A DNA stretch of 62,628 nucleotides from Candidatus Microgenomates bacterium (lineage in GTDB: Bacteria; Patescibacteriota; Microgenomatia; Daviesbacterales; UBA10151): contig JACOYE010000013.1 of the NCBI GenBank assembly GCA_016182045.1, positions 1 through 62,628 on the forward strand, written 5' to 3'. The notes beneath the pieces were generated by a model. It saw only the letters and a program-made list of their open reading frames with translations. It was not told the DNA's origin and did not search any database. Made by a program: the position numbers and the translations under genes. Shown here piece by piece: positions 11,596-19,907 of this stretch (within the stretch, counting starts at the first letter, position 1; each line of letters begins with the position of its first letter).

Positions 11596-11625
11596 TTGAC
11601 AAGAAATAAGGTGAAGAGTTATATT
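11596..11625 (+). promoter_or_regulatory. Sigma70-type promoter for the small DUF2795-like gene
   Basis: TTGACA (11596) -18 bp- TATATT (11620). A purine-rich AAGGAAGGGGGTGA RBS-like tract lies before the ATG. Confidence 0.75.
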
Positions 11626-11657
11626 TTCTCAGACCATAAAGGAAGGGGGTGAGAAAA

Positions 11658-11876
11658 ATGCAAAATGTTGCTTCAGCAATTGATCACCTAAAAACACATC
11701 AGACTTATCCAGCAACCAAAGCTCAGCTGGTGGCAGAATGTAACAACTTGTCCGATTTTTCAGAAGAGGATAAAACAGAGTTTGCTCAAAACCTTCCAGA
11801 AGGTAGCTACAACTCTGCTGATGATGTTGTAAAGGCACTGGGTTGGCAAACTCAACAACCACAACAAGCGATGTAG
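11658..11876 (+). CDS. Small helical protein, DUF2795/MTH865-like
   Basis: YPATKAQLV...LPEGSYNSADDVVKAL matches the YPA(T/S)K..L..LP...Y.S..DV pattern of DUF2795. Has its own promoter and RBS. Confidence 0.75.
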   Translation: MQNVASAIDHLKTHQTYPATKAQLVAECNNLSDFSEEDKTEFAQNLPEGSYNSADDVVKALGWQTQQPQQAM

Positions 11877-11908: not shown

Positions 11909-13135
11909 ATGAAAGAGATTATACGCTCATTATTTCCCCAGTGGATGATTAATAAATTTTATCATCTTCCGCGGGCTTTCTTGGCCTATATTTTTTACGG
12001 ATTCCCAACTAGAAACTTAACAGTCATTGGAGTGACCGGGACTGATGGCAAGACCACCACAGTCAATATGATTTATCAGGTTCTAAAATCTGCCGGAAAG
12101 AAAGTTTCCATGGTCTCAACAGTTAATGCTGTGGTGGGTGGTCAACGATACGATACAGGATTCCATGTGACTTCACCAGATCCTCTCTTGGTGCAAAAAT
12201 TTGCCAAAAAAGCTAAAGACAATGGCGATGAGTTCTTAATATTGGAAGTAACCTCACATGCTTTAGATCAGTACAGATTTTGGGGAATTAAATTTGATGT
12301 GGCAGTTATAACCAATGTTACCCATGAACACTTGGATTATCACAAAACTTTTGGAAATTACCTAAATACAAAATTTAAACTTATAAAAGATGTTAAATTT
12401 GCTGTAGTTAATGAAAATTTAAACAGATTGCCACGTCGCTTCGCTCCTCGCAATGACGATAATAAAAGAATGATTACATTTGGACACAACAGAGGAGATT
12501 TTAATCAGGAGGATATTAATTTAAAACTTAAAATACCCGGTGATTATAATGTTGAGAATGCTCTGGCTGCCATAGTAGCTGCTTCAGTTTTAGGTGTTAA
12601 TCAAGAAATAGCGCGTAAATCAGTGGAAAGCTTTAAGGGTATAGTGGGTAGAATGGAGGAGGTTAAAAACAGAAGAGGTTTCAGAATAGTTATTGATTAT
12701 GCCCATACTCCAAACGGTTTGGAGCAAGCCTTAAAAACTCTACGTTCGCAACATCCACAGGGGAAGTTAATCTCACTGATAGGTTGTGAAGGAAAAAGAG
12801 ATGTCGGTAAAAGAAGCTTGATGGGGGAGATTGCCACTAAATTATCTGATATGGTGGTGGTGACTGCAGTTGACCCTAGGGGTCAGATTGATACTATCAA
12901 CAGACAAATAAGTAATGGAGCCAAAAAAGCGGGAGCAAGAATGGATGAAAATTTTTTTATCATAGATGATAGAGCAAAAGCCATCGATTTTGCCATAAAC
13001 AGTTTGGCTAAAAAGGGAGACACGGTGGGAATTTTTGGTAAAGGTCATGAGAGGAGTATGAATCTGGATGGTAAAAAAGAGATACACTGGTCTGATGAGG
13101 AAGCTGTTAAAAAGGCTTTGAACAATGGACAATAA
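11909..13135 (+). CDS. murE: UDP-MurNAc-dipeptide amino-acid ligase MurE (short N-terminus)
   Basis: GVTGTDGKTTT, EVTSHALDQ, TNVTHEHLDYH, GRME, IDYAHTP, GKGHE. Confidence 0.9.
   Translation: MKEIIRSLFPQWMINKFYHLPRAFLAYIFYGFPTRNLTVIGVTGTDGKTTTVNMIYQVLKSAGKKVSMVSTVNAVVGGQRYDTGFHVTSPDPLLVQKFAKKAKDNGDEFLILEVTSHALDQYRFWGIKFDVAVITNVTHEHLDYHKTFGNYLNTKFKLIKDVKFAVVNENLNRLPRRFAPRNDDNKRMITFGHNRGDFNQEDINLKLKIPGDYNVENALAAIVAASVLGVNQEIARKSVESFKGIVGRMEEVKNRRGFRIVIDYAHTPNGLEQALKTLRSQHPQGKLISLIGCEGKRDVGKRSLMGEIATKLSDMVVVTAVDPRGQIDTINRQISNGAKKAGARMDENFFIIDDRAKAIDFAINSLAKKGDTVGIFGKGHERSMNLDGKKEIHWSDEEAVKKALNNGQ
12425..12457 (+). repeat. 33-bp REP-like element in frame inside murE
   Basis: AGATTGCCACGTCGCTTCGCTCCTCGCAATGAC. 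30/33 identical to the reverse complement of 48129-48161. Confidence 0.9.
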
Positions 13136-13715
13136 ATTAAAAATAATTGCCAACTACTTCGGCATGGATAGGGTTAAGTTTAACGAATCTATTGCTCAAT
13201 ATACCAGTTTAAATTTAGGAGGCCCTGCCAAATTATTTTTTATCGCTTTTACTAAAGGGGAGATTATAAAAATGGTTAAAGTTTGTAGAGAATTAAAGTT
13301 GCCTTTTTTTATTTTCGGTACAGGTTCAAAGATTATGCTCTCAGATATAGGTTTTGAAGGAGTAGTCATAAAAAATCGCACCAAAGATATTCATATCCTC
13401 TCTATCAAGGGTAAAGTTTCAAAAGTTGGTATTGGAGTTGATGAAGCTTTGGTTGAAGTAGACTCGGGAGTAAGCATTTCAAAATTTGTGGAATTTTTAG
13501 ATACTCAAGGACTAATGGCAGATGAGTTTAGACAAAGGCCTGGAAGTATTGGGGGGAATATTTTTTTAAATAAATCTTTGCAAAATAAGGTGAAAAGTAT
13601 TAAAGTATTAAATTTGAATTCATCAATCGAAGAAATAGGGGTAGAAAATTTGAGTTTTAAAAAACATATCATTTTGTCGGTAGCATTAAGAATTAAGACA
13701 AAAGAAAGAAAGTAA
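13125..13715 (+). CDS. murB: Truncated MurB-like FAD-binding protein (196 aa, no C-terminal catalytic domain)
   Basis: YTSLNLGGPAKLF, FGTGSKIMLSDIGFEGVVI and PGSIGG resemble the MurB N-terminus. The ORF stops 2 nt before murA. Confidence 0.75.
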   Translation: MDNKLKIIANYFGMDRVKFNESIAQYTSLNLGGPAKLFFIAFTKGEIIKMVKVCRELKLPFFIFGTGSKIMLSDIGFEGVVIKNRTKDIHILSIKGKVSKVGIGVDEALVEVDSGVSISKFVEFLDTQGLMADEFRQRPGSIGGNIFLNKSLQNKVKSIKVLNLNSSIEEIGVENLSFKKHIILSVALRIKTKERK

Positions 13716-13717
13716 AT

Positions 13718-14974
13718 ATGAAATATAAAGTTATCGGCGGACATCGACTGAGTGGAACAATTCGTGTCTCCGGAAATAAAAACTCGGTTTTTCCCTGCGT
13801 GGCTGCAGCACTATTAACTGAAGAAGAAGTAATTTTGGAAAATATTTCCGATATTTCAGATGTAGAAAGATTAATTGAGATTTTGAAAAAATTAGGTGTC
13901 GAAGTTCAAAAAAGTGGTCCAACTTTAAAAATTTTAGCCAGAGAAATAAAAAATACCAGCTTACCTAAGGATTTGATGGGGAAGTTAAGAGGCTCTATGG
14001 TTTTGGTGGGAGCAATACTTGCCAGGAAGAACAAAGTTCATTTTTATCATCCTGGGGGTGATGTGATTGGTAAAAGAAGTATTGAGACTCACCTTGAGGG
14101 ATTTAAAGGCTTGGGAGTGAATTTAAAAAGAGAAGATTTGGAATTTAGGTTAAATTATCAGGAAGATTTTAAAGATCGGGCTATTTTTTTTCTGGAGGCT
14201 TCTGTGACGGCCACGGAAAACTTAATTTTGGCATCTGTTTTGGGCAAAAGAGATGTGATCTTGAAAAATTGTCCTAAAGAACCGCATATTATTGATCTTT
14301 GTAAAATGTTAACTAGAATGGGAGCTAAAATTTTTGGAGTAGGAACAGATGCATTAAAAATTTCAGGTGTTGAAAAACTTAAGGGAGTTAAATTTAGGAT
14401 AGGGATTGATTATGTGGAGGTAGGGACATACGCAGTAGCGGCAGCTATCACAGGAGGAAGACTTACAATCAGCGGTATTGATGATACGGATTTGGATCCA
14501 ATATTTGAACCGTTAAAAAGATTTGGTATACACTCGGATTTTACAAAAGATACTATCACAATCCACTCTGGTAAATTAAAATCTGTTCCGAAGCTGACAA
14601 CCAATCTCTGGCCTGGATTTCCCACCGATCTGATGAGTGCTGCCATTGTTTTGGCGACTCAATCATCTGGGGTAACTTTGTGTCACGATTGGATGTATGA
14701 GGGAAGGATGTTTTTTGTTGATAAATTAATCTCAATGGGAGCAAAAATTATCTTGGCTGATCCTCATAGAGTATTTGTTTACGGATTAAGTAAGCTCAAG
14801 GGAAGAATACTGGAAACCCCGGATATTAGAGCAGGAATGGCTTTGGTTTTAGCCGCCCTCGTTGCCAAGGGTGAGTGTTTGATAAATCAGGCAGAATTGA
14901 TTGAGAGAGGTTATGAGGATGTGGTGGGGAAACTAAAAAAATTAGGTGCCCAAATAGAGAGAATTGATGTATAA
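13718..14974 (+). CDS. murA: UDP-GlcNAc 1-carboxyvinyltransferase MurA
   Basis: SGNKNS, LRGSM, PGGDVIGKRS, SVTATEN, PGFPTDL, PDIRAG, RGYE. Confidence 0.96.
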   Translation: MKYKVIGGHRLSGTIRVSGNKNSVFPCVAAALLTEEEVILENISDISDVERLIEILKKLGVEVQKSGPTLKILAREIKNTSLPKDLMGKLRGSMVLVGAILARKNKVHFYHPGGDVIGKRSIETHLEGFKGLGVNLKREDLEFRLNYQEDFKDRAIFFLEASVTATENLILASVLGKRDVILKNCPKEPHIIDLCKMLTRMGAKIFGVGTDALKISGVEKLKGVKFRIGIDYVEVGTYAVAAAITGGRLTISGIDDTDLDPIFEPLKRFGIHSDFTKDTITIHSGKLKSVPKLTTNLWPGFPTDLMSAAIVLATQSSGVTLCHDWMYEGRMFFVDKLISMGAKIILADPHRVFVYGLSKLKGRILETPDIRAGMALVLAALVAKGECLINQAELIERGYEDVVGKLKKLGAQIERIDV

Positions 14975-16178
14975 TTCTTCAGTGGACATAATAAATCATC
15001 CAATTTGGAAACAAGTTACTCCTTATAAAACTAAAATACCCGCCTTTAAAAAACCGTTACATCTTTTAAAAATTTATCTGGCAAAACAATATGCCCGATT
15101 TTATCCGCCGGAAACTTTTATAGGTGTGACAGGTTCTGTGGGAAAAACAACCACCATTGCTTGTGCTCTGGCAGTTTTATCTCAAAAATACAAAGTGATT
15201 ACTACTATACCAAACTTAGACCCTGTTTTAAACATCCCTCAAACTTTGTTGAAACTAAATCCTACTGTCAAAAAGGCTATTTTGGAAATGGGCATTGAGT
15301 ATCCGGGAGAGATGGATTTTTATCTTTCAATGGTTAAACCAAAAACAGCCATTATAACCCGAATTTATTATGCTCATGCACAGTACCTCGATGGTTTGGA
15401 ACAAATACTAAAAGAGAAAGGGAAACTTGTTGAGCAGTTACCGAAGGATGGGAAAATCATCTTAAATTGGGATGATGTCCTATCCAGGAAACTAGCAGAA
15501 AAATGTCAGGGGGAAGTTATTTATTATGGCAAAGATTCCATGAATTGTACTGTTTGGGCAGGGAATATTAAATTTGAAAACTTTAGAACTACTTTTGAGA
15601 TAAATCATGGGGTGGAAAGGGTTAAGGTCGATTATCAACTTTTAGGTGAGCATCAAGTTTATCCGGCATTGGCTGCTTGCATATTGGGGGTTTTGGAGGA
15701 TATCTCCCTGACTAAGATTAAATTGGCTTTGGAATCAATACAACCGTCTGAGCATAGGTTGCAGGCTCTGAATGGTCCAAATGGATCTATAATTTTAGAT
15801 GATACGTACAATTCTTCCCCTGCGGCGGTAGATGCAGCAATCGATGTCTTGCTACAAGTTCCCGCAAGAAGAAGGCTAATTGTTTTGGGTGAGATGAGAG
15901 AGTTGGGCAAATATTCAGAGATGCTACACAGACAAGTTGCTCAAAGAATTTTCAAAGAAAAACTGGATTTTTGCTTTTTGGGCCAAGGAGATGCCAATAT
16001 CATCACAGATGAGTTAAAAAGTTTGGGATATTGGGAGGAAAAACTGCAGTCAAACTTGCAAAATTCTCAAATTGTCGTCAGGTTACTAAAAACTCTGGGT
16101 AAAGGGGATGTCTGTCTTATTAAAGGTTCGAGAGCCGTAAGATTAGATGAGGTGGTAAATAGAATTACTAAGAGTTAA
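14967..16178 (+). CDS. murF: Mur ligase, MurF type
   Basis: GVTGSVGKTTT, ILEMG, LDDTYNSSP, VLGEMRELG, LIKGSR. Start codon uncertain. Confidence 0.88.
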   Translation: MYNSSVDIINHPIWKQVTPYKTKIPAFKKPLHLLKIYLAKQYARFYPPETFIGVTGSVGKTTTIACALAVLSQKYKVITTIPNLDPVLNIPQTLLKLNPTVKKAILEMGIEYPGEMDFYLSMVKPKTAIITRIYYAHAQYLDGLEQILKEKGKLVEQLPKDGKIILNWDDVLSRKLAEKCQGEVIYYGKDSMNCTVWAGNIKFENFRTTFEINHGVERVKVDYQLLGEHQVYPALAACILGVLEDISLTKIKLALESIQPSEHRLQALNGPNGSIILDDTYNSSPAAVDAAIDVLLQVPARRRLIVLGEMRELGKYSEMLHRQVAQRIFKEKLDFCFLGQGDANIITDELKSLGYWEEKLQSNLQNSQIVVRLLKTLGKGDVCLIKGSRAVRLDEVVNRITKS

Positions 16179-18303: not shown

Positions 18304-19206
18304 ATGAAAAAAATTAGTAAAATTCCTTGGGCAGAATCTATTTGGTTTTTTGACATAGATGATACTTTGATAGATACAGCCGGAACCACCTTGTCTGTAT
18401 CAGAAGGGATTATGAGAGTATTCCAGGCAAAACACACTGTGGAAGAGACACTAAGGGTTCGCGATAACTTTAATGATATTTTCAATCTAATGATGATAGG
18501 TTACAGAGTTAAAAATAAAGAGGATTGGCAACAAGTACCAGGAGAAAAGGAAGCATTTGAAAAACTCCTGCAAGATATAGGAAAGTCTCAGAATAGAGTA
18601 AAAGAAAGATATGGAACTTCTAAAAAATGGAGTAGAGAAGTTTTTATAAAATTTGCCGCAGATAAGACAGGTATACAAGTTACTCCAGAATTAGTACATG
18701 AGGCAGCAGATGCATACTGGGTTACTCTCACAGAACAAACCATGGTATATCCTCAGGCTTTTGATTTGATACAAGTAATCAAAAGACATAATCGGCCAAT
18801 TTATTTACTTACAAGCTCTGACGGAAGGCTAAATATGGATGATGAGGGACAGTTTGATTATGATCCTAGATACTCCGAAGCACTAAAAAGACAAAGAATA
18901 GAATTATTGAGGGAAAGAGGAGTTAATTTTAATGCTTTATCCATTGGTGATCCTGAAGATAAACCTCATCTAGATTTTTTTGAAAAGGCAATAAAAATAG
19001 CTGAACGTGATTTAGGAAAACCAATTGTTTTTAAGAATGCTATTATGGTTGGCGATTCTTTTGGGGGTGATTTGTAAACTCCCAAGGGAAAAATGAGATT
19101 TGGCCTAGTAGTGTTATTCCAAAAGGACAAAGAAGATACAGAGATCGTTGATGAACGTCAAATAATTACGGGAAAATTATCAGAAGTAGCTAATTTTTTA
19201 ATTTAA
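18304..19206 (+). pseudogene. HAD-superfamily hydrolase with an in-frame TAA at 19075
   Basis: Motif I FFDIDDTLIDT and motif IV MVGDSFGGDL* followed in the same frame by 42 more sense codons (TPKGKMRFGLVVLF...ANFLI*). Confidence 0.75.
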
Positions 19207-19223: not shown

Positions 19224-19907
19224 CTAAAAATCATTCTCTAAAGTCAAATCTTGAAGTATTTCAAAATCATCTTGTTCGCTTACAAAGGTTTGGTAAGAGA
19301 GTTTTGGGTTAGTTTTGGAAAAGTAATATAATACTTCATCTGGCTTTACCCATTCTGTTTTTCTTTTTCCTAAATACTCATCATATGAGCATGGTTGAGT
19401 TTGCAAGGAGTCTCCTTGCAAACTCAACGCTTGTTTATGGATATAGCGGGATAGATGAAGAAATTGATTTTCGTGAGTAATTAAAACTGCTTTGTATACA
19501 TCTTGAAATAATGAACCTACCCTGTTGTATTTACGATTAAAATACATAGTGTACCTTGTACATAATGATCTCATAAATTTATTAATTGTTTGGGCTGATT
19601 TTTGTTTAATAAAGAAATGAAAGTGATTGGGCATTAAACAATAGGCAATTAAAGATACTTCATCAGCAAAATTATTTAATCTAAGTTTTTTTAATATCGT
19701 ATCCTTTTCCCTGTAAGAAACACTTGGATCTCCAAGCATTTTTCTTAAAGTTTCCTCATCCTTGGGCAGTAAATATTCTTTTAAATATCCCAGGAATACT
19801 CCATAATCCTGTTCATCTATAAAAATTGTCCTCTTCTCAACCCCGCGATTATATAAGTGGTAATAACTATCATCTACATACATTTTCAGAGAATTACGTG
19901 CCGGCAT
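19224..19907 (-). CDS. REP-associated tyrosine transposase (RAYT, IS200-like Y1_Tnp)
   Basis: YYHLYNRGVEKRTIF, LIAYCLMPNHFHF (HUH), YFNRKYNRVGSLFQ, SRYIH. Confidence 0.92.
   Translation of the reverse strand: MPARNSLKMYVDDSYYHLYNRGVEKRTIFIDEQDYGVFLGYLKEYLLPKDEETLRKMLGDPSVSYREKDTILKKLRLNNFADEVSLIAYCLMPNHFHFFIKQKSAQTINKFMRSLCTRYTMYFNRKYNRVGSLFQDVYKAVLITHENQFLHLSRYIHKQALSLQGDSLQTQPCSYDEYLGKRKTEWVKPDEVLYYFSKTNPKLSYQTFVSEQDDFEILQDLTLENDF
19394..19428. repeat. Perfect 35-bp palindrome inside the RAYT coding sequence
   Basis: GTTGAGTTTGCAAGGAG-T-CTCCTTGCAAACTCAAC, 17-bp arms. Confidence 0.95.

Follow-up and report, generated by a model that had tools for sequence, protein, structure and literature searches.

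A short MurB homologue in the dcw cluster

We analysed a 62,628-nt contig (JACOYE010000013.1, forward strand; referred to here at its full length as the window) from the assembly GCA_016182045.1 of a Candidatus Microgenomates bacterium (GTDB lineage Bacteria; Patescibacteriota; Microgenomatia; Daviesbacterales; UBA10151). Its division and cell wall (dcw) cluster contains, in order, mraZ, rsmH (mraW), ftsL, ftsI, a small DUF2795-like open reading frame (ORF), murE, an ORF encoding a short relative of the peptidoglycan-precursor reductase MurB, murA and murF. The cluster continues 3′ of murF with mraY, ftsW, a HAD hydrolase gene, an IS200/Y1-type transposase gene on the minus strand, murG, an ftsQ-like gene, ftsA and ftsZ. 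We call the product of the MurB-like ORF short MurB (sMurB). It and its neighbours are located as follows.

13125–13715, plus strand: sMurB, 196 aa, ATG start, MurB domains 1 and 2 only (p-cresol methylhydroxylase (PCMH)-type fold binding flavin adenine dinucleotide (FAD)); from the ORF, Pfam and NCBIfam matches and an AlphaFold2 model
13125–13135, plus strand: murE/sMurB overlap, with the sMurB ATG 11 nt inside the end of murE; from ORF coordinates
11909–13135, plus strand: murE, 408 aa, without the N-terminal domain, upstream neighbour of sMurB in nearly all related loci; from Pfam, NCBIfam and synteny
13718–14974, plus strand: murA, 418 aa, downstream neighbour of sMurB only in the subclade of the window; from TIGR01072 (444.5 bits) and synteny
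14964–16178, plus strand: murF, 404 aa, directly 3′ of sMurB in genera with murA elsewhere; from Pfam, NCBIfam and synteny

An initial reading of this DNA from its letters and ORFs (the sequence-only reading) had described a 196-aa ORF that overlaps the murE stop and ends just before murA. The coordinates bear this out: the overlap is 11 nt, and just 2 nt separate the sMurB stop from the murA ATG at 13718. Such a start/stop overlap is an arrangement that would permit translational coupling, and a tight murE–sMurB junction recurs in related loci, as overlaps of 8–22 nt or gaps of 1–8 nt.

sMurB ends at the boundary between MurB domains 2 and 3

The same reading had taken the ORF for a MurB reduced to its FAD-binding half, and both domain searches and structural modelling agree with it. 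The only Pfam match is to FAD_binding_4 (PF01565; E 8.8e-11, residues 38–149, 42.1 bits versus a gathering score of 26.4), and the Pfam search of the ORF gave no match to MurB_C (PF02873). The NCBIfam equivalog models for MurB align to sMurB over their N-terminal half only and below every cut-off; the best of them, NF010480, covers positions 14–172 of 303 with 76.6 bits against a cut-off of 259, and TIGR00179 reaches 36.1 bits (cut-off 144.5). We modelled the fold with AlphaFold2 from 50 family members; the model is of high confidence (mean predicted local distance difference test score (pLDDT) 92.8, predicted template-modelling score (pTM) 0.86), and its best structural matches are crystal structures of MurB (Foldseek E 2e-14 to 3tx1). 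Across MurB structures the Z score is 15–18, followed by other flavoenzymes of the PCMH/vanillyl-alcohol oxidase (VAO) group at Z 14–15. Residues 1–196 of the model superpose on residues 15–212 of Staphylococcus aureus MurB (1hsk) with Z 17.8 and a root-mean-square deviation of 2.0 Å over 182 residues; sMurB therefore ends at the boundary between domains 2 and 3. As modelled, it is a complete FAD-binding fold, made of MurB domains 1 and 2, from which domain 3 is gone.

The short form is fixed across a GTDB family

All genomes used for comparison are assemblies from uncultured organisms (metagenome-assembled genomes, MAGs), closed ones among them. The short form, of about 194 aa, was found in all 23 genera sampled from the same GTDB family, and a profile search recovered it from 84 of the 95 family genomes in the collection. 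At about 36 related loci examined within the family, the slot is filled by the short form every time. Its length is kept at 192–198 aa, and reading frame and length persist down to about 30% identity. A word-indexed protein search returned 676 matches, of which the best 120 are all 193–212 aa long and 61–77% identical, their named members belonging to Candidatus Daviesbacteria or Microgenomates. In an exhaustive search of representatives at 50% identity, about 40 clusters of 185–203 aa cover the whole query, and full-length MurBs rank only after them.

The 11 family genomes in which sMurB was not found also lack MurA or MurF, or are only 64% complete, and these are probably assembly gaps in which the dcw contig was not assembled rather than losses. 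One of the genomes without sMurB, G200, contains only a Mur-ligase-like gene outside the dcw context. Outside the family, nearly all MurB matches in 120 genomes of other Patescibacteria families lie in open frames of at least 284 aa, the exceptions being a fragment at a contig end and a 211-aa ORF in G041 (G041:C3:77400-77918). The latter fits the MurB model only at positions 2–97 and 239–282 and may be a different, internally deleted MurB.

We also looked for independent short MurB families elsewhere and rejected the candidates: the other short matches look like fragments, being labelled ‘partial’, clustered with mates of 296–322 aa or encoded on contigs of about 1 kb. In the ESM Atlas there are clusters of 191–219-aa proteins whose sole domain is FAD_binding_4, most frequent in Bacillota (401 members in one cluster; feature score 0.90), which may be fragments or independent short MurB-like proteins. 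A 429-aa metagenomic protein, P0160, has a first stretch of 125 residues that is 44% identical to sMurB and about 300 further residues without a Pfam match; it could be a chimera, a read-through product or a real fusion.

This distribution disposes of the idea that the ORF is short through a recent deletion, frameshift or assembly error in this MAG. Its short length, and nothing further, speaks for such an error, and the same short ORF occurs in the 84 independent genomes, closed ones included, and in hundreds of metagenome proteins; recent deletion or misassembly is ruled out by this family-wide presence, and we assign an error of this kind a negligible probability. The sequence-only reading had named a full-length MurB at this place in relatives as the sign of such an event. 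Within the family no examined locus has one, and full MurBs fill the slot only in sister families.

Selection acts on the protein

The conservation of length proposed for checking by the sequence-only reading is matched at the codon level. We computed ratios of nonsynonymous to synonymous substitution rates (dN/dS) with the Nei–Gojobori method (NG86) for 24 genomes, comprising the clade of the window and 13 genomes of one genus. The median dN/dS is 0.135 for sMurB, 0.132 for MurE and 0.135 for MurA, with median dN of 0.232, 0.239 and 0.252, respectively. For sMurB the ratio ranges from 0.08 to 0.19, and the closest pair (dS 0.14) gives 0.08. sMurB is thus constrained as strongly as its essential neighbours MurE and MurA.

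These values bear on a second alternative, that sMurB is a non-functional relic whose DNA is kept for signals, such as translational coupling or internal promoters, needed by downstream dcw genes. The start overlapping the murE stop and the stop just ahead of murA would suit a relic of this kind, as would a reported position effect of murB within the dcw cluster of Bacillus subtilis, cited in PMC10214165 (its ref. 26). However, purifying selection of this strength and amino-acid divergence equal to that of MurE and MurA indicate selection on the protein itself, frame and length are retained at great divergence, and at several residues conservation exceeds that of active MurBs. We regard the relic explanation as very improbable.

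Catalytic and flavin-wrapping elements are lost, and a basic hairpin is conserved

To compare the two forms residue by residue, 35 short forms were aligned with 66 full-length MurBs. Three segments of sMurB stand out.

13317–13331, plus strand: GTGSK, residues 65–69, altered first glycine loop (GxGSN in full MurBs); from the alignment
13362–13469, plus strand: signature block VIKNR..I....IKGKVS..GIGV(E/D)EA..EVDSG, residues 80–115, a long β-hairpin and the most conserved part of the short family; from the alignment and model
13539–13556, plus strand: PGSIGG, residues 139–144, second glycine loop, kept; from the alignment

The change of GxGSN to GTGSK and the absence of the YR motif, with LSFKK (residues 176–180) in that region, had been picked out in the window, and both extend to the family. 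The last position of GxGSN is Asn in 98% of the full MurBs and Lys in 91% of the short forms. The alignment columns of the YRxS motif are deleted in all short forms, and those of the GNAGAYG loop that follows PGxxGG in MurB are deleted as well. The short forms have also lost A145, G148, N149 and A150; conservation of the TT..IGG motif has dropped to about 50–60%, and D74, G76 and G132 are relaxed too. The catalytic residues of Escherichia coli MurB are R159 (the Arg of YRxS), S229 and E325. With this assignment sMurB lacks the catalytic Arg, and the Ser and Glu fall in the absent domain.

What has been kept is equally specific. G65, G67, S/T68, S114–G115, S/T141, G143 and G144 are at least 90% conserved in the short forms, with G65 and G67 at 97% or more in short and full groups alike. 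Within the second glycine loop, G143 is invariant (100%) and G144 reaches 91%, with P139 at only 46%. The kept loops presumably face the ADP/pyrophosphate half of FAD. Other positions are newly conserved in the short forms: an N-terminal helix (L7, G13, K18), A41, E46 and L57 and, foremost, the hairpin block, in which K95, G96, K97, G104, E111, S114 and G115 are conserved to at least 90% and whose strands span residues 89–99 and 102–113 in the AlphaFold2 model. Several residues are better conserved in the short forms than in active MurBs. The short form is also basic (median isoelectric point 9.4, net charge +7); in the family's full MurB the corresponding region has an isoelectric point of 6.1 and a charge of −1.

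The retained loops raise the possibility that sMurB binds a cofactor or nucleotide, either FAD or an ADP- or UDP-containing compound, and, apart from any Mur complex, has acquired a new activity as a small redox protein or a sensor/regulator. FAD_binding_4 is still matched above its gathering score, the loop residues listed above are highly conserved, the Lys that replaces the Asn of GxGSN could still touch phosphate, and the model is a complete, confident PCMH domain. Yet the region around the isoalloxazine ring has been deleted or eroded (no GNAGAYG loop, no YRxS Arg and only a relaxed TT..IGG motif), the Pfam match spans only profile positions 4–107 of 139, and a flavin held without domain 3 would be largely solvent-exposed. 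We consider this reading unlikely, although it keeps an appreciable share of our belief. On the residue evidence, together with the conservation described above, sMurB is very probably a conserved, non-reductase derivative of MurB.

A separate full-length MurB accompanies most short forms

A non-catalytic or repurposed paralogue, as the sequence-only reading supposed, implies that UDP-N-acetylmuramic acid (UDP-MurNAc) comes from another MurB or from salvage, and a search of this genome supports that supposition by turning up a second MurB. Contig C11 encodes a full-length MurB of 337 aa with matches to FAD_binding_4 (68.5 bits) and MurB_C (70.7 bits) and with the motifs YRDS, PGSFFKN and EPEV present; it is likely to be the reductase of this genome, judging from its sequence. 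The gene (L004:192-935, G000) is not part of a dcw cluster and lies beside one for an NAD-dependent epimerase/dehydratase. On contig C13, MurC and MurD are encoded divergently, and MurA, MurE, MurF, MraY and MurG are all encoded in the window. With the C11 MurB, the cytoplasmic pathway is therefore full without sMurB as an enzyme.

The same search covered a separate MurB_C gene, and the candidates were rejected: two weak Pfam matches are a DUF5667 protein and elongation factor P (EF-P), and the only true MurB_C is that of the C11 gene. This bears on the proposal that sMurB is half of a split MurB, with the FAD domain encoded here and the substrate-binding/catalytic domain supplied by a separate protein, in the manner of heteromeric flavoenzymes whose FAD subunit stands alone. 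Seven sMurB genomes that are at least 90% complete lack a MurB_C match, and five of them have MurA, two of these with MurC as well, so that they would need a reductase. Against a split enzyme, no separate MurB_C gene exists in this genome and none was found in the closed genome G005; the YRxS Arg and the flavin loop belong to the half that was retained, yet they are deleted; and most family genomes (83 of 95) carry a complete MurB as well, identified by MurB_C. We think a split MurB quite improbable.

Genomes in which no full MurB was found

MurB_C was not found in 12 of the 95 family genomes, and 11 of these 12 have sMurB, so that in several family genomes the short form is the sole MurB-like gene. 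The seven that are at least 90% complete are G005 (closed, one contig), G008, G011, G160, G164, G165 and G182. MurA is present in G011, G160, G164, G165 and G182, and MurC also in G160 and G182. In G005 and G008, MurA, MurC and MurD were not found either, and in G011, G164 and G165 neither MurC nor MurD was found; the four of these five genomes that are not closed are 91–99% complete. Judging by the sMurB tree, the five represent at least two separate lineages. Gaps in MAGs can explain some of the absences, but not those of the closed genome G005. Without full MurB, MurC and MurD, these five genomes would need another source of UDP-MurNAc-dipeptide, the MurE substrate.

All seven genomes retain murE–sMurB–murF, or murE–sMurB–murA where murA is adjacent (in G165, murA follows sMurB), and in G005 (L018), G008 (L032) and G011 (L019) mraY–ftsW–murG lie downstream of murF. 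sMurB thus occurs with or without MurA and full MurB, and the genes that consistently accompany it are murE and murF. The sequence-only reading had placed the short gene cleanly between murE and murA. This describes the present genome and the order murE–sMurB–murA–murF of its subclade, but not the family at large, because many other genera have murE–sMurB–murF with murA located elsewhere. As adjacency to murA is not general, a function tied specifically to MurA is less probable than one tied to MurE and MurF.

A resident dcw MurB was truncated

Ten genomes from sister families within the same class have a full-length MurB of 291–363 aa in the slot ahead of murA, with further Mur-ligase genes upstream. 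The sMurB ORF is the positional descendant of this MurB gene of the Microgenomates dcw cluster, cut back to domains 1 and 2 in the ancestor of one GTDB family (whose records are named Candidatus Daviesbacteria). Full MurBs are confined at this position to the sister families, which makes the truncation an ancient event that has become fixed.

An indel in the hairpin points to the type of MurB from which the short form arose. The segment from N84 to S114 is 29 aa long in 34 of 35 short forms and 28–34 aa in the eight closest full-length MurBs, whose named members are Candidatus Gottesmanbacteria; it measures 15 aa in the family's full MurBs (16 of 18) and in the majority of other MurBs from Patescibacteria. 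This shared 14-residue extension connects the short form with Gottesmanbacteria-type full MurBs rather than with the full MurB that the family itself carries. Together, synteny and the indel lead to the conclusion that a resident ‘long-hairpin’ dcw MurB was truncated and that a full MurB of standard type, encoded elsewhere, probably carries the enzymatic function. A tree of the N-terminal domain (101 rows) places all short forms in one clade on a long stem (Shimodaira–Hasegawa-like approximate likelihood ratio test (SH-aLRT) support 99), and when unconstrained it puts the family's full MurBs in a separate clade, grouped with MurBs of other Patescibacteria. A point that weighs against this history is that the approximately unbiased (AU) test does not reject a topology that unites sMurB with the full MurB of the family (p 0.58), so that the N-domain tree does not decide between a xenologue and a sister paralogue.

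MurE and MurF of the window are also reduced: both (408 and 404 aa) lack the N-terminal domain, and their NCBIfam matches start at about profile positions 73 and 68, respectively. Sister families with a full MurB have a MurE of about 400 aa as well; the reduction of MurE is therefore older than the truncation of MurB.

Other features of the cluster

The 428-nt gap between ftsI and murE contains a 75-aa ORF with a weak DUF2795 match (11649–11876) and a sigma-70-like promoter match (11/12, 11596–11625). Further downstream, the HAD-family hydrolase gene lies 3′ of ftsW (18304–19077), and the IS200/Y1-type transposase gene (19224–19907, minus strand), on the opposite strand, breaks the dcw cluster ahead of murG.

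Relation to known systems

MurB itself (PDB 1hsk, 3tx1, 4pyt and 1mbb; TIGR00179 and NF010480) shares with sMurB the fold of domains 1 and 2, at 20–24% identity, the glycine loops on the pyrophosphate side and, in sister families, the place in the dcw cluster. Unlike MurB, sMurB has no MurB_C domain, no YRxS Arg and no GNAGAYG loop, carries GxGSK for GxGSN and falls below the equivalog cut-offs. The closest full-length relatives are the ‘long-hairpin’ MurBs of Gottesmanbacteria (for example KKR34438.1 and MBM3283031.1), which share 36–43% N-domain identity and the 14-residue extension; they differ from sMurB in keeping MurB_C and the flavin motifs, and their hairpin sequence is far less conserved than that of the short family.

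FAD subunits of molybdo-flavoenzymes of the CoxM/CutM/XdhB type are stand-alone PCMH-type FAD domains (FAD_binding_5) that bind flavin and whose partner subunits are encoded adjacently. sMurB is likewise a separately encoded PCMH-type FAD domain, but it belongs to a different Pfam family, and no partner domain was found beside it.

Mur enzymes have long been proposed to act as a complex, and we know of no dedicated non-catalytic organiser among them. Natural Mur chimeras, including MurC–MurB, and a MurE–MurF complex are precedents for physical coupling (PMC10214165, PMC4803751), and mur gene order reflects the association of Mur enzymes (PMC10214165). MurC–MurB fusions of 730–823 aa are among the distant matches of our sMurB search. 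In contrast to the chimeras and complexes, sMurB is unfused and its catalytic equipment is gone, and any complex that includes it is hypothetical. Our literature search found no paper on a truncated MurB in the candidate phyla radiation (CPR), and databases name the short form ‘FAD-binding protein’, ‘hypothetical protein’ or, wrongly, ‘UDP-N-acetylmuramate dehydrogenase’.

A candidate adaptor of MurE and MurF

We propose that sMurB is a pseudoenzyme without a redox role that may serve the late cytoplasmic Mur machinery (MurE and MurF) as adaptor or ligand-binding subunit. The start/stop overlap suggests joint synthesis with MurE, and sMurB would act on the MurE/MurF machinery through its conserved basic hairpin (IKGKVS..GIGVEEA..E.DSG), with the two retained glycine loops possibly still holding an ADP- or pyrophosphate-type ligand. 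For this specific mechanism, suggested by gene order and residue conservation, our confidence falls somewhat short of an even chance. The broader statement, in which a truncated and conserved MurB descendant is a pseudoenzyme adaptor or ligand-binding subunit for MurE and MurF, we judge evenly balanced between true and false. A stronger form, in which the MurE/MurF steps of Daviesbacteria-type CPR bacteria cannot do without sMurB as a non-catalytic organising or regulating subunit, kept even where MurA–MurD have apparently been discarded, is rather doubtful.

Several observations weigh against an adaptor of the late Mur enzymes. The role is drawn from gene position and conservation only, and the retained glycine loops could be purely structural. 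Adjacency to murE is not universal, as sMurB comes after ftsI in G020. A search for longer proteins (E ≤ 1e-20) turned up none in which the short form is joined to a partner as a Rosetta-stone fusion. Apart from one closed genome, the evidence that MurB, MurC and MurD are missing comes from MAGs.

For annotation, short forms should not be counted as MurB when the peptidoglycan capacity of CPR bacteria is inferred. The family offers a clean example of a pseudoenzyme arising once a second copy takes over catalysis, and sMurB is a concrete candidate for a Mur organiser or for a new ligand-sensing function. If it does prove to be an indispensable subunit of MurE and MurF, it would be the first scaffold protein dedicated to the cytoplasmic steps of peptidoglycan synthesis, derived from an enzyme of that very pathway, and the lineages that seem to lack MurA–MurD would have to obtain the early precursor from elsewhere.

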